A stretch of 64,000 nucleotides of DNA, from positions 128,001 to 192,000 of IMG/VR virus record IMGVR_UViG_3300014204_013734. One strand, given 5' to 3'. Shown in pieces: positions 14,792 through 40,524 of the stretch (the stretch's first letter is position 1; each line of letters starts with the position of its first letter). The translations under genes were made by a program, and so were the position numbers. The notes under the pieces are model-generated. The model worked only from the letters and a program-made list of their open reading frames with translations, had not been told where the DNA came from and did no database searches. The DNA is from a virus (lineage: Duplodnaviria > Caudoviricetes).

Positions 14792-17700
14792 ATGAATCAG
14801 GATGAAAAAGTGGTCAAGAAGATACCCATCAGGAAGGGTATCGTTACGGGTCGACCCAACAAGGTTGTCACTTCAGCCATGCGGTCTAAAGTGGCATTTC
14901 CGACTTCCGGCGGTACTATCACGGGTTCCGGCGGGAATTTCTATTCTCCTGAACTGTCGACTGACTTCCTTGAACTCCCCCAAAGTATCAATGAACGTTG
15001 GAATTACTATCGCTTTTTCTATGACAACGAACCCTTCGTCGGGCAGGCTATAGATCTGCATACGGAACTTCCCCTTTCAAAAATCCGTCTGGTGCCGCCG
15101 GAAGCCAAGAATAGAGATTTGGCTCAGCAGGCGTTGACCTTTTGTGAAAAATGGTCCAAGAACATTCGGCTTCTTCACCGACTCATTGCAATCGTCCACG
15201 ATTATCACCTGATTGGGGAAGTGTACGTCTTTGCCGAAGACACTTCTCCTGATCTGCCACAGGATGTCCGGCAGGAACCCTTGCGGGAAATCACTTCCGA
15301 AGGGGAAGCCATAGAACGTTGGATAGATCGTCCTGACGCGGATGCACGGGCAATTGATTGGCTCAAGAGAAATTACAAGGGGTGGTCCGCTTTGAGGGTG
15401 CTTCCCCCTGAACAAATCCACATGACGTCATTCCCGTTCACTGACGAAAAAATTATTGAACTGGTTCCGGATTCTAAGACCAAGGACATTGTGGAAAAGG
15501 CTGACGCCGGGGATCTTCAGGCTGTCAGGGTCGTGGAATCCATGCCACAGGACATCATCCAGGCAATCAAGGAAGGTAAGAATATCCCCTTGAATACCGA
15601 TCCTGATGCCGGGTCTTTCGTTCATTATCTGGCTCGGAAGCGGAGTGATTACGACGAACACGGCAAGTCCATTCTTCAACGGTGCCTTCTGCCTGGAACA
15701 CCTATTTGGATCAAGCGGCATGGGACTATCCAACAGATTGCTGTGGAAGAGGTGAATGATTCCACGGATCTTTTGTTGACTCACCTGGGCCGGTTTATGC
15801 CTTGTAAGGCAGGAACCCGCCCGGTAGATGAAGAAATCACCGTCCTTGAAATCGAAGGTGTTGAAGAACCTTTGAAGCTGACTTCCGACCACGAAGTCCT
15901 TCGTGTCCTTGAAGACGGGTCTGAAGAGTGGGTTGCAGCAGGCAAACTGCAAATCGGGGATATTGTTCGGGAAAGTCATGTCCTTCTCGATGGAAATCCG
16001 GATGGAAATCCGGCAATTCCTTATCATTTCAAGAACATTGACATGGTCAGTTGGTGGTCGGGTCGTATCCTTGATTCAATCAAGCGCGGCAGACCCGGCA
16101 CAGATTTGTTGGAAACAGAACGGAAAGTTGTCGTTGAAGCTATTCATCCTGATGGGAATGGTATTGTCGTATCCTTCCGTCATGAAAATGACAATCGGAA
16201 CCGAGTGAAGATTAGTCCTGTGTTGGAAAAGATACTTTCTTGGGCGTTTAGCCTGGAAGTTCCCGTTGTCAAAACGCAGGCGGAAGTAGCTGTTCTTGCA
16301 GGGGTGTCGGAACGTGATGTTAGGATGTACGTCCCCCGTCTCCGTAAAGAAGGTCTGCTGAAGACGGAAGTCAGGTCCCTTGGCAGGGGGAAGGGTCAAT
16401 CCGTGACGTGGTTCCCTGCGGTAACTGGGACGCTTCCCCCTATTATTACAACCCTGTCTTCCCCTATCAGGAATATTGCCGTTGATGAAAATTTCTGTTG
16501 GTTGCTTGGGGCATGGTTTGGGGATGGTTTCGTTTGGACGGAACACGAAACTTTGTTGAACGTTGACTGTGTCGGATGGTCCCTTCACGACCAAGATGTT
16601 GAAGCTAAGGTCGTGGAATTGGTTGATAAGTATTTTGGTTCTGTGAATGTGAAGCGGGGTTGTCTCGTTGACAAGAACACGGATTCCGATGACCTTCGCA
16701 TTGAAGACCCCCTTTTGGCCCGTTGGTTTATGGAAGAATTTGGGTACACGGCACAAGGTAAGCAGATGCCCGAATGGCTTTTCCATCTTCCCGAAAGTTA
16801 CGTCCTGGCTTTTCTTCGTGGTCTGTTAGACACGGATGGTTGGATAGGGGTTGATACGGCATTTCAGATTGGGTTCGGCATGGACAATAAGGTTTTGATT
16901 GACCAGATGCACCTGTTGTGTAATCGGGTCGGGATCAAGACACATGTTGGGAAAAACCATAAGAAGGAACGTTCCTGGACAAGAACCTGGAACACCAAGA
17001 AGGGTGTTCGGGAAAAGACCTATGATTACGAAGCCAAGACTTATCCGACTTTGACTTGTTCTCGTTCCGAAGATGTTCGGCGATGGGCAGGGGAAGGAAG
17101 TATCAAGGGTTCCAGGGTTGAATGGGTAGACAGGGAACCAGACAACCGTAGGGGACCTAAGATGATCGGCGGATGGCTGGTCCACAGGATTGCTTCGGTT
17201 TTGAATACCCCCTACAAGGGTCCGGTGTGGTCGTTTGATGTTGAAGAGGATACTTCTCATTTTACTTCAATCATCACACATAATTGTTTGAGAACGCTGG
17301 TCTTCAGAGACAAGATTCGGCAGGCGCATACGTCCATTGCTTCTCGACACATGACGCCTTACCGGGTCATTTATGCCGAAAATATGAATGATGACCAGAC
17401 GGAAGCCTTGCGTGATCAAGTAGACTTGGCTTTACAAGACCCCGACTATTCCATCATCACGAACTTCGCGGTGACGTGGGAAGAAATGGGCGCCGATCAG
17501 CGGTTGCCCGACTGGTCTTGGGTGTGGGACATGACGGATCGTCAGCTTTATGCCGGTCTCGGCGTAACTGAAAGTCTGTTGTCCGGGGAAGGGGCCTATG
17601 GGGGTGACAGACTTCACCTAGAAGTTATCAACACCAGGTACATGTTACTGCGTGAAATCCTTCAAGATTTCGTTGAACATGATCTGTTCCGTCCTATGTG

Positions 17701-18070
17701 TGCAAGGATGGGGTTCGTTGAGGAAGACGATGAAGGGAATGTAGAACCTTTGGTTCCGCGTTTGTCCTTCACTCGTCTTGCTTTGCGTGATAATTCGGAC
17801 ACCTTTGACGCCTTGTTCAATCTCTACCAGAAGGGCAGCCTTGACATTGACATCATTCTGGATCTTCTCAACATAGATCCGGTAACAACCCGAGAAAAGC
17901 TGCAACGGGATGTGTTCACGTTGAATGATTCTTCGTTCAATGAAGTTTTACGGGGCATCTACCAGAAAGTCGGGGATCTTTTGGTAGAAGGTTCCGATGT
18001 TACGGAAAAGATTGCCGAAAACCTTGGACTGGTGTTCAAGAAAGTCAAGGAAGGCGGCGAACGTTTCTGA
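14792..18070 (+). CDS. Portal protein containing one intein
   Basis: Follows TerL; ~558-aa extein with portal-like motifs (EPFVGQAIDLHTELPL, HGKSILQRC, AGLGVTESLLSGE). Confidence 0.8.
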   Translation: MNQDEKVVKKIPIRKGIVTGRPNKVVTSAMRSKVAFPTSGGTITGSGGNFYSPELSTDFLELPQSINERWNYYRFFYDNEPFVGQAIDLHTELPLSKIRLVPPEAKNRDLAQQALTFCEKWSKNIRLLHRLIAIVHDYHLIGEVYVFAEDTSPDLPQDVRQEPLREITSEGEAIERWIDRPDADARAIDWLKRNYKGWSALRVLPPEQIHMTSFPFTDEKIIELVPDSKTKDIVEKADAGDLQAVRVVESMPQDIIQAIKEGKNIPLNTDPDAGSFVHYLARKRSDYDEHGKSILQRCLLPGTPIWIKRHGTIQQIAVEEVNDSTDLLLTHLGRFMPCKAGTRPVDEEITVLEIEGVEEPLKLTSDHEVLRVLEDGSEEWVAAGKLQIGDIVRESHVLLDGNPDGNPAIPYHFKNIDMVSWWSGRILDSIKRGRPGTDLLETERKVVVEAIHPDGNGIVVSFRHENDNRNRVKISPVLEKILSWAFSLEVPVVKTQAEVAVLAGVSERDVRMYVPRLRKEGLLKTEVRSLGRGKGQSVTWFPAVTGTLPPIITTLSSPIRNIAVDENFCWLLGAWFGDGFVWTEHETLLNVDCVGWSLHDQDVEAKVVELVDKYFGSVNVKRGCLVDKNTDSDDLRIEDPLLARWFMEEFGYTAQGKQMPEWLFHLPESYVLAFLRGLLDTDGWIGVDTAFQIGFGMDNKVLIDQMHLLCNRVGIKTHVGKNHKKERSWTRTWNTKKGVREKTYDYEAKTYPTLTCSRSEDVRRWAGEGSIKGSRVEWVDREPDNRRGPKMIGGWLVHRIASVLNTPYKGPVWSFDVEEDTSHFTSIITHNCLRTLVFRDKIRQAHTSIASRHMTPYRVIYAENMNDDQTEALRDQVDLALQDPDYSIITNFAVTWEEMGADQRLPDWSWVWDMTDRQLYAGLGVTESLLSGEGAYGGDRLHLEVINTRYMLLREILQDFVEHDLFRPMCARMGFVEEDDEGNVEPLVPRLSFTRLALRDNSDTFDALFNLYQKGSLDIDIILDLLNIDPVTTREKLQRDVFTLNDSSFNEVLRGIYQKVGDLLVEGSDVTEKIAENLGLVFKKVKEGGERF
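15683..17284 (+). mobile_element. Intein (534 aa) with LAGLIDADG endonuclease and an inserted winged HTH
   Basis: CLLPGTPI start, LTSDHEV block B, WLLGAWFGDG and FLRGLLDTDG, end VWSFDVEEDTSHFTSIITHN|C. Confidence 0.93.
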
Positions 18071-18142: not shown

Positions 18143-21100
18143 ATGCAGCAGACAGTTTCCAGCGCAAAAGACGGCAGAAAGACGGGGGACGGGTCCGGGG
18201 TCGGATTTTTCATTCCCCTTCCTCCTGATCTTGGGGCGCAGTTCCCTGACCTTGGGGATGAAGACCGCAGCAATCCGCATACGACATTTCTTTACGTTGG
18301 GGAAGTTCCTGAAGAACGAGAAGCCGAATTCCTGGAAGTGTCTGCCCGTGTCCTGGGGACGTTGGGCGGTCTTGTTCGGGGTTATCTTGATCACCTTGAC
18401 TATTTTACGCAGCCAGACAAGGACCGGAAGGTCGCTGTCATGGCGATTCGGTTTGACAAGGATCTTGCAGCACTTAGATGGAATCTACGCGATGCCCTTC
18501 TTGATGCCGGTTTTCAGGTAGCTGATGGATTCCCCCTTCTGTACAAACCGCATGCAACTATCCAATACATGGAAGGACTTGGTTCCGAATGGAAAGGTCA
18601 TGTCCCTTCCGGGTCATGGTCATTTGACAGGATGGAAGTTTGGGGTCTGCCGAAACTGCATTCCGTTTATTTTGGTGAATCCGTGGAAGGACGTGTAGCG
18701 TCCAGGTTCCTGGAATCCATGGAACACGGGGTTTCGGTTGCCTTGATGAAGTTCTTGTCGGATGTTGCCAAAAAAGCAGGCGTGTCAAAAAACACCTACG
18801 TAGTAGGCGGGGCCGTTCGTAATTTCATTTTGGGGGTGCCCGTCAAAGACGTGGATGTCGTGATAGATTCCATTGCTTCGGGCAAGGATTCCGCATGGTT
18901 CGCCAAAAAGGTCAAGGAAGCGATTCCCGTCCCAACCAGTTTCGTGACCAATCAGTACGGTGTTGCATTGCTGACGGTGAAGGGGGATTGGTTCGTTGAT
19001 GGGGCTAATCTGAATGGGGAAACCATAGAGATTGCCAACGCCCGGAAGGAATCCTATGGTGGGGAAGCGGGCCAAGGTTACAAACCCCATATGGTCGCTC
19101 CTGCGACCATAAAGGAAGATGTCATCAGGCGGGATTTCACTTTCAACACCCTCATGTGGCGTCTCCATGATCTATCTTCCGGTCCCGATGCGGCAGAAAT
19201 CCTGGATATAACCGAATGCGGATTGAAGGATCTGCAGGCGGGGGAAATGCGGTGCCCTTCCGATCCTGACAAAACTTTTTCGAATGATCCTTCCAGATTG
19301 ATACGGGCCATAAAATTTATTTTGAAATACGGATTCAAGGTTCCCCCGGAAGTGGAAGCTTCTATTCGCCGTAACGGTCTGAAGCTCAGAAACGTCCCTC
19401 CTGGTCACCTTAGCAACATGATCATTGAATTGTTCTACGAAGGTGGGTGGGGTCGGCGTGCTTTGGAAGAAATGGACAAGTTGGGACTCCTGGAAGTCAT
19501 CAAAGACATAGCTAGGACGGACAAACCTTTCAGGGAAGCCTTGTCCAATTGGGCAGACCGCAAGGCTGACATTTCTTTCCTGTTTGACCTGATTGACATC
19601 GGGATGCCGACCGGAAGGCGTTTGAACTTCCTGACACAACCGCAGAAGGACCGTCTCAGGGAAATAACCGTACAATGGCCTGCTGAGAAGTCCGACGAAT
19701 TTGTAAACCTGCTGGAACAGCCTGGGCGCATCAAGGGTCTTGCTTTCGGGGGATTGATCCAGGAACTTGGGCTTCAAGGACCAGGAATCAAGGCGTTGAC
19801 CGACACCGTTCGCCAACGGCTTCTTGACGATCCTGATTTGGTCAGAAATCCTGACAAGCTCAGGAGGTTGGTCGGGTTGGGGAAAACGGCCGGGATTGAC
19901 AAACCCTTGGACAAGGACTGGTTGATGGCCGTCCGACGGGGATGGTTGAAATTGATGAATCCTGCTATCCGTGATTACGGCGATGTGCTGAAAGCGTTTA
20001 ATGCTTTGGATGCCTTTGCCGAAAACTTGCAGGATCAGGTGCTTAATGTCAGGCGTGATCTTTTTACGAACGATGTCAGAACTGACAAGGTAATTGCCGG
20101 CATCAAGAGGCTTCGGGAAGCAATTTCGGATTCCAGATACCATGCGAAGTTTTGGTCCGAGTGGCTTGACGGGACATCCGTGGGTTTTCGGTTGGGGGAA
20201 GATCGGACCGCAGATGCCTTGAAGATGTTGGAATTGTACCGCACGAATTTTTCTGATGCTTCTGGAACTTCAGTGAAGGGGCGTAAAAGTCCCAGCAACC
20301 CTTGGGCGAATAGCCGACAGGTTCCGTTGACTTATATCCTGGACGCGGTTTTGAAGGGGCTTTACGAAATTGCCAAAAAGAATCTGGAAGTAGGGGAGTC
20401 CGGGGACATACCGGAATATGAATCGTTCTTTCGGGAATTTTCCCTGGGAGGCATGAAGATTCTTATCAGTGATCCGAAAACACATGGTAAGGCGATAGGT
20501 GCCTATGTCCGTCAGATTGGTAAGGCAAAGCATCTTTTGGAAGCGGCTGGATTCGCCAAGGATTGGCGTGGGTTGATGATGGTCCAGTCGTCTGATTGGC
20601 ATGTTTTGACTGACACGGAAAGGGAAATATATCGGCGCAGAGGTTATGACATTCAGGAAACTGCGGGGCAGTATAGAAGTGGATCCGATTCCATTGTCCT
20701 GACTTCCCCCCCGGATTGGTCTTTGGTATTGACAATCGTGCATGAGATCGGACACCGACATTGGTCCAAGTATTTGGATGTTTCCGACAGAAAACGTTTC
20801 GCGGACTGGATTGCCGAAGGTTTGGCTCCGGTCAGCGACTACGGGAAAACCAATCCGTCAGAAGCTTTTGCAGAGGTATTCGCTCATTATGTGAATCGAA
20901 AGAACATGACCAGAGACCAGTTGGAATCCTTCAAAGCAGTGGTCAATAAGACGGCGTCCGAAAAAAAGGTGTTGAAAAACAAAAAAGGCTGCTTGATTTT
21001 GGCTCGTGTAGGGGGTTTGAGTCCGGTTAGGCAGCGCAACGAAGCGGCGCCTGCCCGTAAAGGGTTGTGGGCCTTTCTATGGCCTTGGTTTGACACTTGG

Positions 21101-24100
21101 TTGCTTAGTGGCACGAATGCTAGGGGGTGGCTTGAGAATCAAGATCAAAAAGGGGGCACGCGGTTGGAGGATTTCAAGCGCGAAGGCTACCGGAAATTCA
21201 AACATTGCGGTTATGTGTGGACGCATTTTGATATTCCAGGAAAAGAAGTTTTGACTAAAGGTCATTGGAATTTGGTTCATTCCTCGGATCTGGCGCGGGA
21301 AATTCCTCGGATATACAAGAGCGAACTTAAAGCTTTACGGAAACAGTATTGGGAAGATTCTAAAACCCCTACTACCCCGGCCGGAGTTGAAGAACAGAAA
21401 CAGCAATCCCTTGAATTTGCGGAATATTGGATACGTCGTCAGGACTGGTCCGAAATGTGCGAGGTGTTTGTTGAACCCCATATGGCGGACAAGACGGCGG
21501 CATTCACTGAAAGCGACTTGGAAACTGCCACCAAGGAGTTTGAAGAAGTTGTACAGCGTCTTACTGACAAGAGGGCCCTTTTTGAAAAAGCCTTTGCAAA
21601 CGAAAACGTTGATGACCCAAGGTATTTGCGACACAGGAAAATTGGGCTCAAGGCATGGATGGAAAAACCTTGGGCCTGGTTGGTTTTTAACGGGAATAAG
21701 TTGTCAAGAATCGTGTTGGAACGGAAATCAGTTCCTTCTGGGCAGGGGAAGGCTTTGGAAATGGCGGCTCGGACTTTCATGTCAGCCAAGCGTTTTCCTG
21801 CAGATTTTGAAGGGTGGATGGCCAAGAATTCAAAGTATGTGGCTTTCCTTCTGAATGCCGCGAAAACTTGGGAAGACAAGAAAGAAGGGGGTTCAGAACT
21901 ATTCAAGATCGGTCCATTCACTGTCCACAATACCATCGGGGCGGCGGATGCCGATTTGGAAGGTGTCCGAAAGATGTTTGAAGCAGCAACATCTGCTGTC
22001 GGACGATTGGGCGGGGATTATTCCGATTTCAAGAAGGTTCTTTACGGAGATGTGCTTGTCGTTGCCCGGTTGAGTCAGCCTAAAGTGATGGCTTGGTATA
22101 CCCCCAATGAGGATGCTGTTTATGTCCGGCAGATGAAGACCGCCGGGATTGACGATGTCCACAATCTTATTCACGAATTGGCTCATCGGTTTTGGAGAAA
22201 GTTTGCGGACGCTAAATTGAAGGCGCGTTGGGTACAACGTGATGACATTGTGCGGTGGGGGGATGATTGGTTCAAGGGTTTGAAGTTGCCTGGGATAGGG
22301 GACACCCTTCCAATTATCTTGAACAAGCAAAAGTATCCTAAGATTGTTGATTTGGACGCCAAGGTTTACAAATTGGCGGTGCCAACGATTTTGGATCCTT
22401 ACAATACTGTTTCCATCCCTCGGACCAAGGTTTTGGAATGGGTTCGGGAAGATGCCAAGAAGGAACAGTTTCCTACCCCCTATGCCGCCAGAGGAGGGGT
22501 AGAAGAACACTTCTGCGAAGCCCTTGCCCTCAAGGCACTCGGTAAGCTCCAGAAGAATCACGAAGAAGCTCTTGATAGAGTGTTCAGCGGGGAACCTGAT
22601 CCGAAGGAGATTGCGTTTGTCAAGGATGTTCAGGAGGCCCTGCGGAAACAGAATCCGTCTGTTGTAGCGTTCCGTCATCTGAAAAAGGCTGGGTTTTTCA
22701 ATGTTGGGGATAAAATTTGGTTCGGCAAATATAAAAACAAAGCCGGGATTATAAAGGGCTTTTCACGGGACCCAAAAGGCAATCCGACCGTCATCATTTC
22801 CCCTGTACCCCAAGGACGGAAGCAAGACAAGGAATTTGGCTTGTACAAAATCTGGCATGCCGATCCTGCCAAAAAGGTTGCCGTCCGTTGGATTTTTGGT
22901 TCCCCTGTCAGGGAACCTTGGCAAATGACGTTTGATGAGTTTCGGCGTGAAGTCAAAACCCAAAGAATTGAATGGAAAGCTGTTCAGACGTTTGAAGATT
23001 TTTTGAAAACGAAGAAGGTTGATCCAAAAGAGCTGCCTTCCCTTGAGGAAGAAGCTGACGTTTTGGGGGGTTTGCTTTTCAGTCGTCCAAATATGACGCA
23101 ACATGAAAAAGGTCGTTTGAAAGGAATTGTCCACAAAAAAATGCTAAAGGATAAGCTTGTTAAGGAATGGAAAGACACCGTGGACAAGGTTGAAACCCAC
23201 ACTGATCTTGATTTATCTAGAAGTTCCGATGCTGCCTATTTGAAGGTCCAGCACAAACGGGCTATCAGGAAGGCATTATCTGAAGGGAATCCAGTTCCTT
23301 CCGAAGTTCTTGCAGAATATCCCGACATCAAAACCGGGATGCGTGTCGCCCAGGATGATAGATGGGATCGTCGGAAGCCAGAAGCGTTCCGAACCCTGAT
23401 TCCCGAAGGTATTTCTAAGAGAATTTACCAAGAACAGATCGGGGAAGTCGGGGGTTTCAAGGTGTGGTTGGTAGACGGCATCGTAATTCGTGACAAAATT
23501 GATATTGATTTCACGGCAGGAGGGAACCCGTCAAGGTACGGTTACATTCCTGCGGATGAAATTTGGTTGGAAAAGACTGGGGATTCCCCATTCAGGAATT
23601 TTGATTTGGCCGCTACCTTGATTCACGAACTTGTTGAATCTTGGGTGATGTCAAACTTGGGGTGGGATTACGACAGGGCTCACGACACGGCTTCCAAATT
23701 TGAAAAGGGGTTCAGGAAGCATCCCCGACTGGTGCCGGAGAACCGGATTCTTTTGATTGCGGAATTCTTGTACCGGAAATGGTTGGGGAGTTCCATGTCG
23801 GGTCGGGTTGCCGCCCGTTACAAGGACAAGAAGACCGTTAAAGATAAGAACGGCGACGACATGGTCGTTTACGAATACAGTGACCGACAGATCGCCAACA
23901 GGAATCGGGAAAAGGCGGAACGGGTTGAAAAGCTCCGCGGCAAGTTGGACAAGCTGGTTTCTCAGGTCAAGAAAGACCTGAAGTCTGACGATGAAAAAAC
24001 CCGCATGACCGCCTTGGCGGTTGGGTTAATTAATGACGTGTACGAGCGCGTTGGAAATCCAGGATCCGCCAAGGACGGTCATTTTGGGGTCACTGGTTGG

Positions 24101-27100
24101 CTTGTCAAGCATGTGTCCTTTTCCGATGGGAAGGCCCTTCTTAAATATGTTGGCAAGTCGGGGGTTGAACAGGACAAGGAAACATCGGACGCTGGTTTGG
24201 TGAAAGCGTTGAAGGATGCCGTCAAAGGCAAGAAGAAGGATGATCCGATCTTTGAATTTGATGGAGGTCGGATCAGTTCAGAAACGGTGAACGAATATCT
24301 GAAACCTTTTGACATCACGGCGAAGGATATCCGTGGACTTCACGCCAACAAAGAAACGCAAAAGGCGTTGAAGGCTATCCGGGCTAAGGGCGGAAAGCTT
24401 CCAGAGGATAAGAAAGAACGGGAAAAGAAGCTCAAGGAGGAATTCAAGAAAGCTGTGGAAGAAGCGGCGGAAATCGTTGGACATGAACCTACCACACTTA
24501 AAAATCTGTATTTGGTTCCAAATCTGTACGAGGCGTTTATTGAAGACGGGACGGTCAAGGAAAACCTAGCGAAACAGAAAACAGCGTCCGTTGCTGCGGT
24601 AGATTTGGAAGAACAATTGAAGCTGTTGTCTCCTTCAGACCGTCACCGGTACGATGAACGGTTGAAGGAGGATCAGGAATTTAGGACTAACCAGGCTGTT
24701 ATCTTTTTGGATCGTCGTGTTCCGAAAGATCAGGTTGTCCGTCTTGAAAAGGAACGTTATCAGAAAATTTACAGGTTGTTGAAGGAATCATATAAGAAAG
24801 CACTACGAGATGGAAAAGATGTTTGGGTGCGAGGTGTTCCACAACTTCTTCCCTTGTTTTACAAATATGCCGTTGAAGCTTTGTCCGCTGAATTTCCAGG
24901 ACTTTCTTTTTCCAAACCTGTTGGATTTCTGATGAAAGATCACCAGAAGCCCCTTCGTTTGTGGGATGAAGCTGAGTATATCCATGACTACGTGGAAAAG
25001 AACCTGGGGAAAATTCATCGTGCTACCAAGACGCACGGGGAAAGGGAAGACGAGGAAGTCGCCGAATTGGTTAAGCCCTTGCCTAAGAAAAACCCCCCCA
25101 GGAATGATCTCCGGAAGGAACGCATGGAAGAGAACGACGGAGATGTAGGAAACCAGGGGGCCGACGAAGATAAAGACATGTCCTTGAATTACAAGCGGGT
25201 TGCCAACCGTTGGATTGAAGGAACCCAGAAAAAGCTATCTCCTGATCAGGAAACGCTTTTGCGTTCTTTGTGGTACAACGGGGATGATGCTGCTTTGGCG
25301 ACGTTCTTGGATTGGCCACGTTCCAAAGTCAAAAGAATTGTAGACCAGTTGCAGAAACTTGGTCTTGTGATTGTAGATTCCGACGGGATCATACAAGAAA
25401 ACACAAAGACAAATAGGATTGCCAACCGTTGGTTTCATTCCAAAAAAGACCTCATCAACGTTCGGAGAAAGGAAGATGGCAAGGTCGTTCAAGTCACCGA
25501 AGAGACCTTGAAGGAATCCCCTGATGAATATGAAACCTTGGAAGAAGGGGAACCCGAACCCGAACCCAAACCCGAACCCAAACCTGAACCTGAAAAGAAA
25601 GTTTGGGAATCAGATATGGGTTTGGTCAAGGATGATCAAGGCAAGGTGACTGGAGTTGATAAAGGCGGTAATGCCTTCAAGGAAACAGCCAAGGAATACG
25701 GGAAGGACACTGTTGAACTGGTTCTTTTCCTGCGTGCCTTTGCGCAGGGGGCCAAGATCAAAATCCCCCCTGCCCTTGCGAAAACGAAAGCCTGGAAGGA
25801 AATCTCCGATTATCCGGTTGAAACCAATCCGGCCCTTGTCAAGGGACTTTTGGAAGCCAAAGATTCCCCCTACAAGGAAGTTTTGGATGCGTTTGACGCA
25901 GCCACATCAAAGGGGAAACCTTCAATCATTCCCGAAAAGAAAAAAGAAGTTGAAGCCCCGACGGTCCAGGAAGGTGAATCCAAACCTGTTCCCAAACCGG
26001 AACCCGTTCCGGCCGTTGAAGAACCCGATACATCTGAAAAGGACTTGGATGCCGTTGTTGGTATGCTGGAAGTTGATCCTGACATGCAGGATGCTTCAGC
26101 AAAAATCACCAAGCGTTTATCCGACCCTAAAACCAGAGAAGAAGCGGTACGGGCATACCGGGAAACCTTTGACGAAGTCATGAATGAATTGAAGAACCAA
26201 GGGGGGGAAGGATTTGATGTGTCGGAATCCATGGCTACCGACCTTGGGGATGCTTTAAAGAATCCTGCCGGAGGGCGTGACGGAAAAGATTTGGGTCGCG
26301 ATTTAGCCCTTCATTCCATCGCCAAGCGTTTGGCGGATCCTGCTAATTTGGACGGGGTTGGTCTTTCGGAAGAGCCTTTGGATGAAATGACCCTTATTGA
26401 TCGGGGTGATCGTGCCCTGGAATTTTATGTCAAGTTTCCCGCTAATTTCCGTCAGGAAGTTGCTCGCCAAATGGTGGATAGGATCAGGGAAGCTAAGGAA
26501 AAAGGCGGTCCGCAAATACAGGAACTTGAACGCATTACTGCGGGTTTGCAAGCTGCTGCAATCGTTCATGATGATTTCAAGGACAAGAGGAACAAATGGC
26601 CCCTTTCTATTTCCCGTCCCGCCCCTGTTTTTAATGGGATTGTGAAATCTCTTTATGAAAAAGGGGATACTCGGGTTGTTGCGTCTTTCGGTATCGGGGC
26701 TCAAGGATTAGCTACGCCGGAAGGTCGGGAAAAATTGCGGCAGGCATTGGATTCCCTTGATGAAGATGAATTGTTTGAAGCGTTGGGCGGGGAGAAGGGC
26801 GAATGGGGTTTGATGATCCGAAACCTTAAGAAAGGGGGTTTGAGGGAAAAGGACAAGGCATGGTATTTGAATTTCATGAAGGAAATGACTGTTGGTGAAG
26901 TTACGACAGGGAATACGGTAGTGATGCAGGCGGCTACGAACGCCCAGGAAGTGAAGGCAAAGGCGGATAAAGAAAGAGAACGTAACCGGGAAGTGAAGCC
27001 GACTTCAGCCCAGATGGAACCTTCCTGGTCGGACTTAATTGATCCTAAATCCGAAAACACCATCGGGGAAGCGGCGGACGCTGTTCACAAAGATGCCCAG

Positions 27101-27439
27101 GGACGATTGCGGAAATTGCTTGAAGCTCTTTCCAAATGCTTCTTCGCTAAAGACGAAGCAAAAGGATTCCGGGATTGTTGGAATTCTTATTCTCATGGGG
27201 TCGGTATAGCACGTGGTAGCACCGGGAAGTTGGCCTTCAGTTCGGAGGAAAACGACGCCCCTAAAGAAGAAGAGATTTTAGGGTTTTTCCAGCTTCAACA
27301 GGCGGGGGCTTACCTGGAATCGGCGGAACGGAAATTCGGTCCGTTGCCGGTCAATAATCCACTGAAAGTCCAAATCCAGACTGCAATTCGTTTGGATGAT
27401 CCTTCAGAGTTGGATAAACGGTACGTACAGAAGAAATGA
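18143..27439 (+). CDS. Giant polyvalent protein: 2H phosphoesterase, class II CCA-type nucleotidyltransferase, three zincin-like domains, type IB topoisomerase, wHTH and unknown domains
   Basis: PHTTF and PHATI; VVGGAVRN...KDVDVV, EDVIRRDFTFN, NDPSRLIRAIKF; HEIGH (20741), HELAH (22172), HELVE (23624); RVGN, GKSG, KDIR and GHEPTTLKNLY (24047-24511). Confidence 0.88.
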   Translation: MQQTVSSAKDGRKTGDGSGVGFFIPLPPDLGAQFPDLGDEDRSNPHTTFLYVGEVPEEREAEFLEVSARVLGTLGGLVRGYLDHLDYFTQPDKDRKVAVMAIRFDKDLAALRWNLRDALLDAGFQVADGFPLLYKPHATIQYMEGLGSEWKGHVPSGSWSFDRMEVWGLPKLHSVYFGESVEGRVASRFLESMEHGVSVALMKFLSDVAKKAGVSKNTYVVGGAVRNFILGVPVKDVDVVIDSIASGKDSAWFAKKVKEAIPVPTSFVTNQYGVALLTVKGDWFVDGANLNGETIEIANARKESYGGEAGQGYKPHMVAPATIKEDVIRRDFTFNTLMWRLHDLSSGPDAAEILDITECGLKDLQAGEMRCPSDPDKTFSNDPSRLIRAIKFILKYGFKVPPEVEASIRRNGLKLRNVPPGHLSNMIIELFYEGGWGRRALEEMDKLGLLEVIKDIARTDKPFREALSNWADRKADISFLFDLIDIGMPTGRRLNFLTQPQKDRLREITVQWPAEKSDEFVNLLEQPGRIKGLAFGGLIQELGLQGPGIKALTDTVRQRLLDDPDLVRNPDKLRRLVGLGKTAGIDKPLDKDWLMAVRRGWLKLMNPAIRDYGDVLKAFNALDAFAENLQDQVLNVRRDLFTNDVRTDKVIAGIKRLREAISDSRYHAKFWSEWLDGTSVGFRLGEDRTADALKMLELYRTNFSDASGTSVKGRKSPSNPWANSRQVPLTYILDAVLKGLYEIAKKNLEVGESGDIPEYESFFREFSLGGMKILISDPKTHGKAIGAYVRQIGKAKHLLEAAGFAKDWRGLMMVQSSDWHVLTDTEREIYRRRGYDIQETAGQYRSGSDSIVLTSPPDWSLVLTIVHEIGHRHWSKYLDVSDRKRFADWIAEGLAPVSDYGKTNPSEAFAEVFAHYVNRKNMTRDQLESFKAVVNKTASEKKVLKNKKGCLILARVGGLSPVRQRNEAAPARKGLWAFLWPWFDTWLLSGTNARGWLENQDQKGGTRLEDFKREGYRKFKHCGYVWTHFDIPGKEVLTKGHWNLVHSSDLAREIPRIYKSELKALRKQYWEDSKTPTTPAGVEEQKQQSLEFAEYWIRRQDWSEMCEVFVEPHMADKTAAFTESDLETATKEFEEVVQRLTDKRALFEKAFANENVDDPRYLRHRKIGLKAWMEKPWAWLVFNGNKLSRIVLERKSVPSGQGKALEMAARTFMSAKRFPADFEGWMAKNSKYVAFLLNAAKTWEDKKEGGSELFKIGPFTVHNTIGAADADLEGVRKMFEAATSAVGRLGGDYSDFKKVLYGDVLVVARLSQPKVMAWYTPNEDAVYVRQMKTAGIDDVHNLIHELAHRFWRKFADAKLKARWVQRDDIVRWGDDWFKGLKLPGIGDTLPIILNKQKYPKIVDLDAKVYKLAVPTILDPYNTVSIPRTKVLEWVREDAKKEQFPTPYAARGGVEEHFCEALALKALGKLQKNHEEALDRVFSGEPDPKEIAFVKDVQEALRKQNPSVVAFRHLKKAGFFNVGDKIWFGKYKNKAGIIKGFSRDPKGNPTVIISPVPQGRKQDKEFGLYKIWHADPAKKVAVRWIFGSPVREPWQMTFDEFRREVKTQRIEWKAVQTFEDFLKTKKVDPKELPSLEEEADVLGGLLFSRPNMTQHEKGRLKGIVHKKMLKDKLVKEWKDTVDKVETHTDLDLSRSSDAAYLKVQHKRAIRKALSEGNPVPSEVLAEYPDIKTGMRVAQDDRWDRRKPEAFRTLIPEGISKRIYQEQIGEVGGFKVWLVDGIVIRDKIDIDFTAGGNPSRYGYIPADEIWLEKTGDSPFRNFDLAATLIHELVESWVMSNLGWDYDRAHDTASKFEKGFRKHPRLVPENRILLIAEFLYRKWLGSSMSGRVAARYKDKKTVKDKNGDDMVVYEYSDRQIANRNREKAERVEKLRGKLDKLVSQVKKDLKSDDEKTRMTALAVGLINDVYERVGNPGSAKDGHFGVTGWLVKHVSFSDGKALLKYVGKSGVEQDKETSDAGLVKALKDAVKGKKKDDPIFEFDGGRISSETVNEYLKPFDITAKDIRGLHANKETQKALKAIRAKGGKLPEDKKEREKKLKEEFKKAVEEAAEIVGHEPTTLKNLYLVPNLYEAFIEDGTVKENLAKQKTASVAAVDLEEQLKLLSPSDRHRYDERLKEDQEFRTNQAVIFLDRRVPKDQVVRLEKERYQKIYRLLKESYKKALRDGKDVWVRGVPQLLPLFYKYAVEALSAEFPGLSFSKPVGFLMKDHQKPLRLWDEAEYIHDYVEKNLGKIHRATKTHGEREDEEVAELVKPLPKKNPPRNDLRKERMEENDGDVGNQGADEDKDMSLNYKRVANRWIEGTQKKLSPDQETLLRSLWYNGDDAALATFLDWPRSKVKRIVDQLQKLGLVIVDSDGIIQENTKTNRIANRWFHSKKDLINVRRKEDGKVVQVTEETLKESPDEYETLEEGEPEPEPKPEPKPEPEKKVWESDMGLVKDDQGKVTGVDKGGNAFKETAKEYGKDTVELVLFLRAFAQGAKIKIPPALAKTKAWKEISDYPVETNPALVKGLLEAKDSPYKEVLDAFDAATSKGKPSIIPEKKKEVEAPTVQEGESKPVPKPEPVPAVEEPDTSEKDLDAVVGMLEVDPDMQDASAKITKRLSDPKTREEAVRAYRETFDEVMNELKNQGGEGFDVSESMATDLGDALKNPAGGRDGKDLGRDLALHSIAKRLADPANLDGVGLSEEPLDEMTLIDRGDRALEFYVKFPANFRQEVARQMVDRIREAKEKGGPQIQELERITAGLQAAAIVHDDFKDKRNKWPLSISRPAPVFNGIVKSLYEKGDTRVVASFGIGAQGLATPEGREKLRQALDSLDEDELFEALGGEKGEWGLMIRNLKKGGLREKDKAWYLNFMKEMTVGEVTTGNTVVMQAATNAQEVKAKADKERERNREVKPTSAQMEPSWSDLIDPKSENTIGEAADAVHKDAQGRLRKLLEALSKCFFAKDEAKGFRDCWNSYSHGVGIARGSTGKLAFSSEENDAPKEEEILGFFQLQQAGAYLESAERKFGPLPVNNPLKVQIQTAIRLDDPSELDKRYVQKK
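25549..25592 (+). repeat. Tandem 6-nt repeat encoding an EPEPEPKPEPKPEPE linker
   Basis: gaacccgaacccgaacccaaacccgaacccaaacctgaacctgaa. Confidence 0.8.
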
Positions 27440-28511: not shown

Positions 28512-29090
28512 ATGACCCGCAAGAACGCGACATTGTCAGTTAACTACCAACAACGGGCGAAGCTATTTGCCGTAAACGATATTGTTTACCCGTTTTGGGG
28601 TTCCGCCGAAAAGACGGGACGTGTCGTGGCGGTTTACCCGGCAATTGGGATGGTTGATGTCGAATGGCCACACGGAAATGACCGTGTACCCGTTGAGGAC
28701 CTTCAGCAACTGAATCCCCACAGTCTGTTCCAACCTCCGTCCATCCCTGCCGGGGAAGATAGTATCCCCGGTGGGGCTGGGCAGGTTTCCGTATCCCCAG
28801 GACCAGTTAACAAAAATTCAGCTCTCCGTGTGGCGGCCGCTTTCATTAAGAAAGCCCTTTATTGGGCCGACAAAGACCGGCAGTACAAGGCCACGCAAGG
28901 GGAACTTGATGACAAGTGTTACCATTGCCCGAAGTGCGGGGAAGAACTGCGGAAGGCAATCTACAAACGTCGTGATGGCGCCAGTGTCCATCTTCTCGGT
29001 TGCGGAACATGCTTGTTCCTGATCAAAAAAGAAGACATCATTGGCGATCCTGAATATGCGGGTCCGAACATCGAAATAGAAGGTGTTTGA
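28512..29090 (+). CDS. Hypothetical protein with C-terminal zinc ribbon
   Basis: CPKC...CGTC; RVAAAF and KKA motifs between its two domains. Confidence 0.7.
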   Translation: MTRKNATLSVNYQQRAKLFAVNDIVYPFWGSAEKTGRVVAVYPAIGMVDVEWPHGNDRVPVEDLQQLNPHSLFQPPSIPAGEDSIPGGAGQVSVSPGPVNKNSALRVAAAFIKKALYWADKDRQYKATQGELDDKCYHCPKCGEELRKAIYKRRDGASVHLLGCGTCLFLIKKEDIIGDPEYAGPNIEIEGV

Positions 29091-29092
29091 CC

Positions 29093-32000
29093 ATGGCATT
29101 TTTGCGTTACAGTAACGCCCGGGTTGTTTCCCCCCACGTGACTCATGTGCAATGGGGGAAAATTAGGACGGCTGGCCTTGTTACTAAGGTTGGTGGCCAG
29201 TTGGACGAAAATCTTGTCGATCGGGCCAGTGAATTGTTCGACAAACAATTCAACCCCAACGACTTTCTTCTGACCCACGCCACTATCATTGCCAGCGTTG
29301 ACACGTACAAACCGGCCGGGGATATGGGGAAGACAGGTTCCTTCTTGATGGATGGATTCCGGGTCAACCGCAAATATGCGGATTATAGAATTACCCAAGA
29401 GACTCAAAAATACATCAACAGCAATTGCCTTGTTTCTGGGACGCCCATTGTGATGGCAGATGGAACAGCAAAATCAATTGAAGATGTTGTTGTAGGGGAT
29501 GATGTTATCACCCATATGGGACGGATCAGAAAAGTCACAGAAACTTTTTGTCACGAAGTTCATGGAAACTTGTATGAAATCAAAGTATATGGTTCTAACG
29601 AACGTCTGCATGTGACTAAGGACCATCCTTTTTTTGTTTTTCGTCCAAATAAACAATGTGCTGAGTGTGGAAGCCCCTTAAAAAGATCTTTGCAATGTAT
29701 TTCGCAACTGCTTGGGAAGCATTACTGTTCCAAGGAATGCTATTACAAGAAAAGGGTCACAAACAAAGAACTTCTTAAAAAGAAGCATGGGGTTTTCGTT
29801 CCCGTACATGATTTGCAGGTAGGGGATTTTGCAGCAGTTCCTGTAGTTTCAGAAGAAATTCCAGTTAATTTGACATTAGGGCAGGCTCGTTTGATTGGCC
29901 TTTTTCTTGCGGAGGGTTATTACGAATTAGATAGCCGGCACGATAATGAAAAAGTTGGGGCTATGTGGGCGTTTCATGAAAAAGAAACAGAAACATTAGC
30001 CCATACTGTTTGTTCTTTGATGAAATCAGAATTTGATGTGGATTGTGTCATTCGTCATTGCACTGATACTAAAGGTATTATGGTAACGACAAAAGTCAAC
30101 CGCCAAGCTGCGGCTTTCTTTTCCCGATGGGTTCTTGGAGAAGATTCTACTAGTAAATATCTTTGCGCGGATTTGTTGAGGGCTCAGAAACCCATTCAGA
30201 TGGAAATAATGCGTGGCTGGTTTGATGGGGATGGTTCGGCTTTTAGTACCGGAACTGAAGAAATTCCCATAAGGGATTTTCGGATGACCGGATGCACATC
30301 ATCTCGGAAAATGGTTTCCCAACTGCAAATAATTCTGCATCGTCTTGGTATTTCACCTCGGTTAGCCTATGTTCTTAGTGAAGGTCGCCAACGAACGGTT
30401 ATTGATGGTCTTGTTAAGGTGATACCTGATCCAACAAAAATTCAATACAGTTGGGTTTTGTCTTGTGGCGCTGGATGGATATCTGAATTGGTAGAAACAA
30501 CCCGATTTGAAGAATCTTATAATGAAGTCATGTCTATTTTAGGGGGGGTTCAAGAAGTTCCAGATCTTAGGTTTCTGAATGGTTTTTGTATTAGGATGAT
30601 AACTTCAATAGAACCATATCCTTATCAAGGATTTGTTTATAACATTGAAACAGAAGAAGATCATTCTTACATTGCAGGTGGAATTGCCGTACATAATAGC
30701 GATAGTTGGTCCCGTGAAGTGCTTTTGAAGGCGTATCCAACGTTCATTGGCGGGCACAATTTCTGTTTTGCACCGGGTACTAGGGTTCTCTTGGAAAATG
30801 GCATCTATAAAGCCATTGAAGAAATACGTGTTGGCGACAAAGTTGTTACCCACAAAGGTGTGTTGCAGGAAGTAACCCACAAATTTGAACGCCAATTCCT
30901 GGGGAATCTTCAGGTTATTTGTGTGGATGGGTTTGAACATCCCTTGCGTGTTACTGGAAACCATCCTTTTTTGGTGATGGAAAACCAAACTGGAAATACC
31001 TGGATTCCAGCAGATAAACTGCAAGTTGGAACCCTCTTGGCAGGGACCAGTTCGGAAATAGGTGCTGTCAATTATCGTGTCCTATCCAATGTTGAAGTTT
31101 CTTACGAAGGTCTTGTGTACAATCTTGAAGTTTGTGATGATAATTCCTACATCGTGGAACCTGGTGTTGCAGTTCATAATTGCGAGCACGTCCAGGTTGA
31201 ATCTCTGAGCAAGGGTCGCATCATTGATGCAGTTGCCCGTGACATCGGGGATTCGGTCTACGTTGACATCCTCATTGCCACTGACCGCAGACACAAGGAT
31301 CTCATTGAATCCATTGAAAATGGCAAGACGAATACACTGAGTATGGGATGTTCAGTGGACATGACTACATGTACTAAATGTGGCCACGTGGCCGCTGACG
31401 AGACCACTCTTTGTAACCATATAAAATACGAAAAAGGCAATACCTTTTTTGACGAGCAAGGACGGTCACATCGTATCTGCGAAATTTGCGGCCACCAGTC
31501 TATTGATCCGCACGGAGGGGTTCAGTTCATTGAAGCTTCGTGGGTTGCCCAACCGGCATTCACTGGAGCTGTGATGAGGAACATCATTCAGCCGACCGAA
31601 GATACCGTTCGTTTGGCGCAGCACATTCTCAATACCCCTCCGCCGCAATGGACCGAAGATTCCCGTCTGAAAGCCGCTAGGCATGAGGTTGTTGGGTCTA
31701 CAGGGACGGACGGCAACGGCAACGGCAACGGAGAAACGGTTGTAGTAGGTTCCTCAAAATTCCGTACGGCAGACATGTCTTCCGGCGGACGGCATTTCAC
31801 TGTTACGGCTGCCGAAATGGATCCTTTCATGGCAGGTTGGAACGAAGAGGATTCTTCAGGTACGGAACCGGAAAAACCACCTGTCCAGCCAACCCCAGCG
31901 GATCCTTTGACGCAGGTTGAAGACGATTTGGAAAAGCACCTTGTAGACAAGGTCGTCAAACGTGTCAGGGATCGTCTAAAAGACCAGGCTGTTGAAGAAA

Positions 32001-32431
32001 CTCTGAAACCGTCGTCAGCCGAAACCAACGAAAACGTGGTTAAAGAAGCCCGTACCGCCAAGTTGGCGATTCGTGTTTACAAGGCTGGTTTGAAGGCCCT
32101 TGTCAAGAAGTCAACCAACGGGGCGGATCTGTTGGATTCCGTTGCTGCATTCAATCAACAGGCAGGAATTGATATCCCCGTTGACGTTTACCGGACGGCA
32201 TTGGCTGTAGGTCCTTCTTCTGACCATGAGTCTATCGATTCGTTCCTGGATAAATGTTCACAGTGTTTGGGACGGTGTCCCGACATCAGTGAATCAAAAA
32301 CTCTGGTGAAGTTGTGCAAGTTGCTTTCGCAAGGACAACCTTTGTGGAAAGCGGATTCCAGTGGAAGCCCCCTAAATCAGGGGACGCGTCAAGCGGTTCG
32401 AAACAAACCCGATTGGAGGAACGTGAAATGA
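29093..32431 (+). CDS. Prohead (capsid maturation) serine protease with two inteins
   Basis: Spliced extein NSN|SDSW...YPTFIGGHNF|CEH...TLSMGC...CTKCGH...FIEASWVAQPAF fits a His/Ser phage prohead protease; upstream of scaffold and capsid genes. Confidence 0.82.
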   Translation: MAFLRYSNARVVSPHVTHVQWGKIRTAGLVTKVGGQLDENLVDRASELFDKQFNPNDFLLTHATIIASVDTYKPAGDMGKTGSFLMDGFRVNRKYADYRITQETQKYINSNCLVSGTPIVMADGTAKSIEDVVVGDDVITHMGRIRKVTETFCHEVHGNLYEIKVYGSNERLHVTKDHPFFVFRPNKQCAECGSPLKRSLQCISQLLGKHYCSKECYYKKRVTNKELLKKKHGVFVPVHDLQVGDFAAVPVVSEEIPVNLTLGQARLIGLFLAEGYYELDSRHDNEKVGAMWAFHEKETETLAHTVCSLMKSEFDVDCVIRHCTDTKGIMVTTKVNRQAAAFFSRWVLGEDSTSKYLCADLLRAQKPIQMEIMRGWFDGDGSAFSTGTEEIPIRDFRMTGCTSSRKMVSQLQIILHRLGISPRLAYVLSEGRQRTVIDGLVKVIPDPTKIQYSWVLSCGAGWISELVETTRFEESYNEVMSILGGVQEVPDLRFLNGFCIRMITSIEPYPYQGFVYNIETEEDHSYIAGGIAVHNSDSWSREVLLKAYPTFIGGHNFCFAPGTRVLLENGIYKAIEEIRVGDKVVTHKGVLQEVTHKFERQFLGNLQVICVDGFEHPLRVTGNHPFLVMENQTGNTWIPADKLQVGTLLAGTSSEIGAVNYRVLSNVEVSYEGLVYNLEVCDDNSYIVEPGVAVHNCEHVQVESLSKGRIIDAVARDIGDSVYVDILIATDRRHKDLIESIENGKTNTLSMGCSVDMTTCTKCGHVAADETTLCNHIKYEKGNTFFDEQGRSHRICEICGHQSIDPHGGVQFIEASWVAQPAFTGAVMRNIIQPTEDTVRLAQHILNTPPPQWTEDSRLKAARHEVVGSTGTDGNGNGNGETVVVGSSKFRTADMSSGGRHFTVTAAEMDPFMAGWNEEDSSGTEPEKPPVQPTPADPLTQVEDDLEKHLVDKVVKRVRDRLKDQAVEETLKPSSAETNENVVKEARTAKLAIRVYKAGLKALVKKSTNGADLLDSVAAFNQQAGIDIPVDVYRTALAVGPSSDHESIDSFLDKCSQCLGRCPDISESKTLVKLCKLLSQGQPLWKADSSGSPLNQGTRQAVRNKPDWRNVK
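29426..30697 (+). mobile_element. Intein (424 aa) with LAGLIDADG endonuclease and a Cys-rich insert
   Basis: CLVSGTPI, VTKDHPF, LIGLFLAEG and MRGWFDGDG, end VYNIETEEDHSYIAGGIAVHN|S. Confidence 0.95.
30764..31180 (+). mobile_element. Mini-intein (139 aa)
   Basis: CFAPGTRV, VTGNHPF, end VYNLEVCDDNSYIVEPGVAVHN|C; no endonuclease domain. Confidence 0.95.
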
Positions 32432-39201: not shown

Positions 39202-40524
39202 ATGACCGCCAAGGACATTTTAGAAACTTTGAAAGAGAACAAGGTACGTTACCTTCGCCTGTGGTTCTCTGATATTTTGGGCCACAACAAGAACGTAGAA
39301 GTTCCAGAAAGCCAGTTTGAAAAGGCACTGGATGGCCAAATACTCTTTGACGGTTCCTCAATTGAGGGTTTCGCCCGCATTGAGGAGTCCGACATGCTGT
39401 TGCGCCCTGACTTTGCTACCTTCTGCATCTTTCCGTGGGAGGAACGTGGGGGCAAGGTAGCACGTCTTATTTGTGACGTGTTCCATCCAGACGGCACCCC
39501 TTTTGAAGGGTGTCCCCGGACCGTCCTGAAACGGGTTTGTGAGAAGGCATTGAAACTCGGCTATGTTATGATGGCCGGCCCCGAAGCCGAGTTCTTCCTC
39601 TTTGAACGCACTGTGGGTTCGTCTGTTCCTAAAACACATGACGTCGGCAGTTATTTTGACCTGACCCCAGTGGACCGGGCCGAAGATGCACGTCGGGACA
39701 TTGTGTCGGTCCTGGAGACCATCGGCTTTGAAGTCGAGGCGGCCCATCACGAAGTGGCCTTCGGCCAGCACGAGATTGATTTCCGTTACGCTGAGGCACT
39801 CAAAACTGCTGACAACGTGGCGACCTTCCGGTTTGTCGTGCGTAAAGTAGCTCTTGATCATCACTTGCTCGCCACCTTCATGCCCAAACCCATCTTTGGT
39901 ATCAACGGTTCCGGCATGCACGTCCATCAGAGCCTTTTCACACAGGAAGGCAAAAATGCCTTCTATGACGCCGATGCCAAGTACCAGATCTCTGAAACGG
40001 GGCTTTCATACATTGGCGGTCTGCTTGCCCATGCCCGTGGGTTCTGTGCTGTCACGAATCCGCTTGTGAACTCGTACAAACGCCTTGTGCCGGGCTACGA
40101 GGCGCCTACGCACATCGCATGGTCCGAACGCAACAGGTCCCCGCTTGTTCGTGTCCCGGCTCGCCGTGGTGTGGGCACGCGTGCTGAGCTGCGCATGCCC
40201 GACCCCTCCTGTAACCCCTATCTTGCCATGGCCGTGACGTTGGCGGCCGGGCTTGACGGCATTGAGAAACACCTTGACCCTGGCCCTCCGGTGAATCAGA
40301 ACATTTATACGATGAGCCCGCAGGAACGTGCAAGGCTCAAAATAAGTTCCTTGCCCGGGGATCTGGGAGAAGCCGTGGAAGCGATGCAGAAAGACGATTT
40401 GGTACGGGAAGCTTTAGGAGACCACGTTTTCCAGCATTTCATTGCCGCCAAGACGCAGGAATGGCAGGAATACATTGCACAGGTCCATCCCTGGGAGGTG
40501 GAACGGTATCTCTCGGCTTATTGA
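39202..40524 (+). CDS. glnA: Glutamine synthetase type I (GSI-alpha-like)
   Basis: FDGSSIEGF, HHEVAFGQHEIDF, ATFMPKPIFGINGSGMHVHQS, NSYKRLVPGYEAP, ELRMPDPSCNPYLA; 440 aa. Confidence 0.96.
   Translation: MTAKDILETLKENKVRYLRLWFSDILGHNKNVEVPESQFEKALDGQILFDGSSIEGFARIEESDMLLRPDFATFCIFPWEERGGKVARLICDVFHPDGTPFEGCPRTVLKRVCEKALKLGYVMMAGPEAEFFLFERTVGSSVPKTHDVGSYFDLTPVDRAEDARRDIVSVLETIGFEVEAAHHEVAFGQHEIDFRYAEALKTADNVATFRFVVRKVALDHHLLATFMPKPIFGINGSGMHVHQSLFTQEGKNAFYDADAKYQISETGLSYIGGLLAHARGFCAVTNPLVNSYKRLVPGYEAPTHIAWSERNRSPLVRVPARRGVGTRAELRMPDPSCNPYLAMAVTLAAGLDGIEKHLDPGPPVNQNIYTMSPQERARLKISSLPGDLGEAVEAMQKDDLVREALGDHVFQHFIAAKTQEWQEYIAQVHPWEVERYLSAY

Follow-up and report, generated by a model that had tools for sequence, protein, structure and literature searches.

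In a stretch of tailed-phage DNA (Duplodnaviria; Caudoviricetes), we identified a compact type IB topoisomerase (TopIB) module, with a complete set of catalytic residues, inside a protein of 3098 residues that is encoded among the head and packaging genes. The stretch, hereafter the window, is 64,000 nucleotides long and corresponds to bases 128001–192000 of the IMG/VR virus record IMGVR_UViG_3300014204_013734 (381,280 bp; completeness ~72% according to CheckV); the source is a “huge phage”. The module (window positions 23804–24586) appears to represent a lineage specific to huge phages and, across relatives, it is persistently but not obligatorily tied to the head and packaging cluster. On balance, we judge it most likely, with modest confidence, that the giant protein is packaged and that the topoisomerase accompanies the genome.

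Identity and catalytic residues of the TopIB module

The module comprises 261 residues and is read in frame 1 of the open reading frame (ORF) 18143–27439. The Pfam profile Topoisom_I (PF01028) matches it with 97.5 bits (E = 1e-27), far above the cut-off of 23.7; a six-frame search of the genome with the same profile scored 97.3 bits. With phmmer, the only PDB chains matched were TopIBs, namely those of Caldiarchaeum (6Z01; E = 5e-8), variola virus (2H7F; 1.5e-6) and Deinococcus radiodurans (2F4Q; 2e-5). A profile of 52 homologues likewise found TopIB chains only, with E-values from 1.5e-21 to 2e-12 (1.5e-21, 7.9e-19 and 3.7e-18 for the same three entries, respectively).

A preliminary description of the window, made from the sequence alone, had assigned these coordinates to a TopIB catalytic domain with the residues R, K, R, H and Y in the order of the catalytic pentad, and had proposed a profile search against the TopIB core. 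The searches bear out the assignment, and the residues and their coordinates are exact in every case: R1969 (in ERVGN; nucleotide 24047), K2005 (GKSG; 24155), R2064 (KDIR; 24332), H2114 (24482) and Y2123 (24509). In the HMMER alignments, these five fall on the pentad of variola TopIB, the members of which we take to be R130, K167, R223, H265 and Y274 (vaccinia/variola numbering).

TopIBs nick one strand by means of the tyrosine, let the duplex swivel and reseal the strand, all without ATP. That an intact core of this kind carries out TopIB chemistry is not in doubt, and the module would be expected to do so. In the 52 aligned homologues, the R-K-R-H-Y pentad and ~40 further columns are invariant, as is the VYEYS hairpin described below; conservation of this degree points to strong purifying selection and to an enzyme that is active.

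Predicted structure of the module

The 52-sequence alignment was used to generate a confident AlphaFold2 model (predicted local distance difference test (pLDDT) 88.8; predicted template modelling score (pTM) 0.81). When this model was compared to the PDB with Foldseek, the best 22 matches were all TopIBs (variola: E = 1.8e-11, template modelling (TM) score 0.72), while the first recombinase was XerH (E = 3.9e-3, TM score 0.44). VIA-align gave Z-scores of 23.1 with the variola enzyme, 23.0 with that of D. radiodurans and 22.1 with the human one; TopIBs score between 20 and 23 across 240 or more residues, whereas recombinases reach at most 13.3, across ~170 residues. The preliminary description had allowed that the nearest fold might be that of a recombinase or a protelomerase: the best matches are TopIBs.

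Residues 1–261 of the model align to residues 49–314 of the variola chain. In the known enzymes, an N-terminal β-sheet domain of ~80 residues (poxviruses) or ~90 residues (bacteria) completes the DNA clamp. In the model, this domain is reduced to its last hairpin, i.e., two strands at model residues 8–24 that include the invariant VYEYS. The sequence 5′ of the module is not conserved amongst homologues, and the free forms begin 4–25 residues ahead of the module. Sequence and model together describe a catalytically complete, compact TopIB. It belongs to the family by its catalytic core but would be a truncated member, most of the N-terminal clamp having been lost.

A discrete unit in huge phages

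When all 1.84 billion cluster representatives (clusters at 50% identity) were searched with HMMER, 2263 matches were found, at least 572 of them with E ≤ 1e-30. The best 150 all span query residues 1–258 with 50–69% identity, and the position of the module varies widely within homologues of 318–3381 residues; free forms have ~280–350 residues. A second search limited to proteins of 138–461 residues added 802 proteins, many of them on contigs of 200–570 kb. Module-bearing homologues occur almost exclusively on huge-phage contigs, and some of the short ones already carry the label “DNA topoisomerase IB” from the JGI pipeline. From these sequences, the module is best described as a discrete unit of ~258 residues that forms a huge-phage-specific lineage, placed relative to other TopIBs by profile E-values and structural Z-scores. 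The cultured jumbo phages Lu11, Motura and HRDY3 gave weak tblastn matches (E = 0.07–3) over half of the module.

Family-specific patterns detected the family in three of 185,579 species representatives of cellular genomes, in each case in a contig of 22–205 kb from a metagenome-assembled genome. We have not named a host from these three contigs (two are labelled Actinomycetota), as they are too few and too likely to be mis-binned phage DNA.

Persistent linkage to the head and packaging genes

The gene order in the window is large terminase (TerL), portal, the 3098-residue ORF, two small genes and the prohead protease; the order is the same around an orthologue of 3381 residues on a contig of 520 kb. 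We collected 80 IMG/VR loci, with 62 distinct module sequences among them, and located in each locus the homologues of TerL, portal, protease and neighbouring genes of the window. The module follows the portal, precedes the protease or does both in 42 of the 62 loci, mostly in ORFs of 900–2837 residues. In seven loci, it is a free gene of ~350 residues between TerL and portal (L028, L030, L043 and similar loci), and in 13, where the ORFs have 289–1171 residues, there is no head gene within 10 kb. The head and packaging cluster thus holds the module in 49 of 62 loci (79%), and fusion into a giant chain is one among several interchangeable arrangements.

The domain had been described as embedded in the head polyprotein. 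The embedding in a head-cluster protein stands, on the strength of the gene order conserved in most relatives; the cleavage that the word polyprotein implies is a possibility. Because about one fifth of the loci carry the module free and away from head genes, it is not an obligatorily fused head-protein domain. The N-terminal part of the giant protein, with its 2H phosphoesterase and CCA-adding enzyme regions (Table 1), is found in the same ORF as the TopIB in 16 of the 62 loci, elsewhere in the locus in 14 and not nearby in 32. The module has evidently been moved and split repeatedly.

The closest phage record, and the sole relative found amongst phage records, is the uncultured LR745208 (485 kb), the module of which shares 54% identity with ours; the DNA of the two records is 66% identical across part of TerL and portal. 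In this one GenBank relative (LR745208.1, 392408–417193), the TopIB module resides in an ORF of 508 residues, and the region upstream is split among several ORFs. In some other relatives, e.g., in locus L006 (10852–11643), a NUMOD3-type gene (homing endonuclease) comes after the free TopIB gene.

A recurring tag at module boundaries

The module had been delimited by RVAARY, which begins at 23804, and KTAS, at 24578–24589. The second of these boundaries was rejected, as homologues end in variable K-rich tails. RVAARY, on the other hand, is conserved and proved to be one copy of a recurring motif, [RK][VIL]AxR[WFY]. This tag occurs five times in the giant protein (18692, 22874, 23804, 25196 and 25415), at domain junctions. 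Over the whole record, ORFs of the + strand contain it 14 times and those of the − strand twice, mostly at protein termini; copies at either terminus of other proteins encoded in the genome (G000) are at 86888, 88260, 92252, 100546, 135254, 170526, 171388 and 348790.

In 264 module-bearing proteins, the motif was counted 226 times versus 3.1 times in shuffled sequences (74-fold). It stands at the start of the module in 159 of 238 homologues and again no more than 60 residues past its end in 48 of the 238; free TopIB forms are often tagged at both termini. A free protein of 226 residues in this genome (G000:C1:87615–88292; L093), tagged at its C-terminus, contains a HAD_SAK_1 domain, i.e., a “Swiss Army Knife RNA repair” HAD domain (E = 1.2e-10), and the same domain is also embedded in giant proteins of relatives. 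Because the motif recurs at the starts and ends of modules, whether these are fused or free, it appears to mark modules, and its distribution would fit a common address or a junction signal.

We also considered an internal start of the module, since an ATG lies three codons before RVAARY with GGGGAG four nucleotides upstream. It was rejected: a methionine near the tag is present in 17 of 66 embedded homologues, which is about the frequency expected by chance.

The giant protein and its neighbourhood

The features of the giant protein and the adjacent genes are compiled in Table 1; the + strand holds nearly all genes of the window. The N-terminal 2H region is a putative assignment in this protein, and in orthologues the corresponding part is matched by Pfam 2_5_RNA_ligase2 and tRNA_lig_CPD. 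In the CCA-type region, PF01743 (PolyA_pol) matches residues 218–369 (E = 2.9e-15) and PF12627 residues 397–453 weakly (E = 0.03). PHROGs matched the protein as a tRNA nucleotidyltransferase (6.6e-28). Near the first of the zincin-like motifs, at residues 866–928, the Pfam profile ATLF (lethal-factor zincin) scored 19.7 bits (E = 7.7e-4), under its cut-off of 27.4.

Downstream of the TopIB lies a charged element that is the commonest companion of the module: with phmmer, it was found in 106 of ~265 module-bearing proteins, mostly on the downstream side, and it ends in the tag. The N-terminal 2H/CCA part, the TopIB and the C-terminal region are all shared with orthologues of 2200–3381 residues. 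The conserved C-terminal region has no convincing match in BFVD (best E = 0.06), and a feature search of the ESM Atlas returned nothing usable. Amongst 48,161 PDB chains, its best match was cytomegalovirus IE1 (Z = 8.8), which is within the noise for helical proteins.

Table 1. Features of the 3098-residue protein and flanking head genes (window coordinates).
Feature	Position	Strand	Remarks
Large terminase (TerL)	12353..14233	+	phrog_2, E = 8.8e-25
Portal protein, split by a LAGLIDADG intein	14792..18070	+	phrog_16240, E = 2.2e-24; LAGLIDADG_3
3098-residue multi-domain (“polyvalent”) protein P0002, carrying the TopIB module	18143..27439	+	one unbroken ORF
Putative 2H phosphoesterase	18278..18562	+	motifs HTTF (residue 46) and HATI (residue 137); without Pfam match here
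Nucleotidyltransferase head of the CCA-adding/poly(A)-polymerase type, with RNA-binding region	18794..19501	+	PF01743, PF12627
Zincin-like metallopeptidase motifs	HEIGH 20741..20755; HELAH 22172; HELVE (variant) 23624	+	the variant lies just 5′ of the TopIB
TopIB module	23804..24586	+	residues 1888–2148; tag RVAARY, two-strand hairpin (VVYEYS), catalytic domain
Charged element of ~65 residues, ATKTHGEREDEE...PKKNPPRNDLRKER...NYKRVANRW	25022..25213	+	residues 2294–2357; conserved in the orthologue alignment
Conserved C-terminal region, 449 residues	26093–27436	+	residues 2650–3098; confident all-helical AlphaFold model, pLDDT 83.8
Prohead maturation protease with intein(s)	29087..32431	+	phrog_18299, E = 1.5e-9; Intein_splicing, Hint, LAGLIDADG_3

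By its predicted domains, the giant protein fits the known class of phage “polyvalent proteins”. At least two unrelated enzyme domains are joined in one chain (the CCA-type nucleotidyltransferase and the TopIB by Pfam, together with the 2H and HExx[HE] motifs), and the gene stands among the head and packaging genes of a portal–terminase phage, flanked by TerL, portal and protease. Genes that adjoin the TopIB of one relative carry the Pfam domain ART-PolyVal.

Inteins or homing-endonuclease domains (LAGLIDADG, Hint) are found in several large genes of the window (14792–18070, 29087–32431, 35905–38622 and 52202–54991). A few genes past the head cluster, the window includes a full glutamine synthetase gene (39202–40524; Pfam Gln-synt_C, E = 9e-139) and one for S-adenosylmethionine decarboxylase (40652–41053; E = 8e-38).

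Discussion

A topoisomerase that may travel with the phage genome

The preliminary description had suggested that the phage may eject a topoisomerase with its genome. We likewise propose that the polyvalent protein would be incorporated in the prohead close to the portal, perhaps with cleavage into modules, and that the topoisomerase would travel with the ~400-kb genome. During or just after ejection, torsional stress in the genome could then be relaxed, Tyr2123 nicking one strand and the duplex rotating before the strand is resealed without ATP. This may help early transcription or replication, as in the case of the encapsidated poxvirus TopIB. Packaging is judged most likely, albeit with the modest confidence stated above, because of the position of the gene after the portal, the polyvalent architecture of its product and two precedents, vaccinia TopIB and the virion RNA polymerase of coliphage N4.

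The preliminary description had invoked poxviruses as packaging TopIB in support of early transcription, and the literature says as much for vaccinia virus: its TopIB is encapsidated and acts mainly in early transcription, according to PMC12188299 (citing Shaffer & Traktman 1987 and Da Fonseca & Moss 2003). The N4 RNA polymerase, a protein of 3500 residues, is described in PMC5512222 as carried in the capsid and injected, with an early function. It is a different enzyme, and its packaging is experimentally shown; it nevertheless sets a precedent for a very large packaged enzyme protein, which the phage protein studied here would follow. For polyvalent proteins in general, the same source (Iyer, Burroughs, Anand, de Souza, and Aravind 2017) takes the head-gene context as grounds for inferring that they are packaged in the capsid and injected, and suggests that the zincins embedded in them carry out their processing. 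The likeness extends to the giant multi-enzyme chain beside the head genes of a portal–terminase phage, a putative 2H phosphoesterase and a Pol-beta-type nucleotidyltransferase domain, and it would include interspersed zincins if the HExxH motifs mark such domains. The differences are that the main text of PMC5512222 names no TopIB domain (“topoisomerase” appears there in one reference title) and that no MuF domain was detected in this phage protein.

Several observations weigh against packaging, or against the function proposed for the packaged enzyme. In the 13 loci without a nearby head gene, the module is a free gene, and in two cases the free protein, of 283 or 294 residues, is encoded among small non-structural genes (RNase HII, a methylase and others); to judge by these loci, the module can also function as an ordinary enzyme inside the cell. 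Searches with Pfam and PHROGs found neither a MuF-like nor another known virion-anchoring domain in the giant protein. With the N-terminal clamp largely absent from the model, processivity or activity may differ from those of the known enzymes. Finally, searches of the 381-kb record detected no type IA topoisomerase, no GyrA/ParC-type domain and no second TopIB. This would favour our reading, in that the phage may need the enzyme, but to call the module its only topoisomerase is provisional, as the record is ~72% complete. A Pfam search of the same incomplete record found no RNA polymerase beta subunit; divergent phage RNA polymerases escape Pfam.

Other readings of the module

The linkage to packaging genes could also mean that the capsid, at its surface or within, is where the TopIB acts, serving the packaging motor or the ejection of a very long genome as a torsional swivel; it would then not be an effector that works in the cytoplasm of the host. 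We hold this to be rather unlikely. It would account for the seven loci in which a free TopIB gene sits between TerL and portal, where the association with packaging genes persists without fusion, and TopIBs, which require neither ATP nor Mg, would suit the interior of a capsid. The 13 loci without a head gene within 10 kb speak against it, and we know of no packaging system that needs a topoisomerase.

Those same 13 loci, with their free copies among non-structural genes of other huge phages, instead recommend an ordinary replication or transcription topoisomerase, made late and acting inside the cell without being packaged, the fusion being an accident of gene order or domain shuffling. Being the sole topoisomerase detected in the record agrees with such a role. 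Free TopIB genes are also known in the cultured jumbo phages Lu11, PaBG, Motura and phiRSL1, and those of the first three have been treated as replication or recombination functions (Iyer et al. 2021; PMC7824862). The predicted folds are similar (Foldseek: PaBG, E = 5.5e-11; Motura, 8.6e-10); however, the jumbo-phage enzymes are free proteins of 540–560 residues that belong to a separate lineage, barely alignable with the module, and they have not been reported as head-cluster or virion proteins. Moreover, an accident of gene order sits poorly with a module that is kept in the head and packaging cluster in 79% of loci, in three different arrangements, and with a flanking tag that marks the termini of other proteins as well as domain junctions. 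Overall, we regard an unpackaged intracellular enzyme as improbable, a little more so than the capsid swivel.

More improbable still, in our estimation, is that the module works at the ends of nucleic acids and not on supercoils. It might cap or join genome ends through its covalent 3′-phosphotyrosyl intermediate, or it might join the 2H and CCA enzymes in acting on RNA or at ribonucleotides. Such chemistry has parallels: vaccinia and eukaryotic TopIBs transfer strands to 5′-OH ends, and their cleavage at ribonucleotides leads to a 2′,3′-cyclic phosphate. The company that the module keeps is suggestive in the 30 loci where the 2H/CCA part shares its ORF or locus, as are the HAD_SAK_1 RNA-repair domains in relatives and in the one tagged protein of this genome; the 2H/CCA part is, however, not nearby in about half of the loci (32 of 62). 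CCCTT, the site of pox and bacterial TopIBs, occurs in the genome about as often as expected from a Markov model (661 copies, and 672 of AAGGG), without enrichment or depletion; this counts against the present reading and is neutral as to a pox-like site preference.

Finally, a tyrosine recombinase or protelomerase, which has the catalytic fold and chemistry in common with TopIB (XerH, XerA and Cre align at Z 12–13), is rejected on the fold and profile searches, in which TopIBs score far better (Foldseek: 1e-11 against 4e-3) or are matched alone, and in which no telomere resolvase figures among the best 50 structural matches by VIA.

Comparison with viral and bacterial TopIBs

Amongst enzymes of known structure, the poxvirus TopIBs (PDB 2H7F, 3IGC and 1A41) are the closest parallel to the packaged topoisomerase that we favour. 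Both come from large double-stranded DNA viruses and have a compact single chain with a contiguous R-K-R-H-Y pentad, the fourth member of which is His, and both keep a hairpin with two Tyr residues (VYEYS in the phage, YFYGK in pox). The variola enzyme is the best structural match (246 residues, root-mean-square deviation (rmsd) 4.2, 18% identity in the structural alignment); sequence identity is only ~20%. The phage module differs in that it is without ~48 N-terminal clamp residues, is part of a 3098-residue protein where the pox enzyme is free (314 residues), and has TLKNLY in place of the SKxxY signature. Furthermore, the pox enzyme is packaged, whereas the phage protein probably is. The D. 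radiodurans TopIB (PDB 2F4Q and 3M4A) has the same compact fold (rmsd 2.3 over 215 residues); unlike the phage, pox and eukaryal enzymes, it has Asn at the position of the His (GNTP versus GHEP), and, unlike the phage module, it has a full N-terminal domain.

Significance

Textbooks give the carriage of a TopIB in the virion as peculiar to poxviruses, and in the searchable literature we found no report of a tailed phage with a TopIB in its particle, nor of the present lineage. TopIB itself, polyvalent head proteins and the virion TopIB of poxviruses were known, and homologues of the module had been labelled as TopIB in databases. What is new is a minimal TopIB lineage apparently specific to huge phages, its systematic linkage to the head and packaging genes and its likely use as a tagged cargo module.

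If the protein is packaged, giant viruses of bacteria and of eukaryotes with double-stranded DNA genomes would have arrived convergently at one solution to the topology of a freshly delivered genome, and an enzyme of DNA topology would join the catalogue of polyvalent-protein cargo. The module would also offer mechanistic work a naturally minimal TopIB of ~260 residues without most of the clamp. More tentatively, and with less likelihood than packaging in the present phage, a large clade of huge phages (~200–600 kb) may routinely load a minimal TopIB into the capsid, addressed by the (R/K)(V/I)AxR(W/F/Y) tag, which would also address other enzymes, fused or free. If that were true, tailed phages would possess a “core enzyme kit” like that of poxviruses, with a peptide as the address code and, in the virion, a topoisomerase to handle the topology of the genome as it enters. 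Because the family is large (the at least 572 clusters noted above) and strongly conserved, results obtained with it would generalise to many uncultured huge phages.

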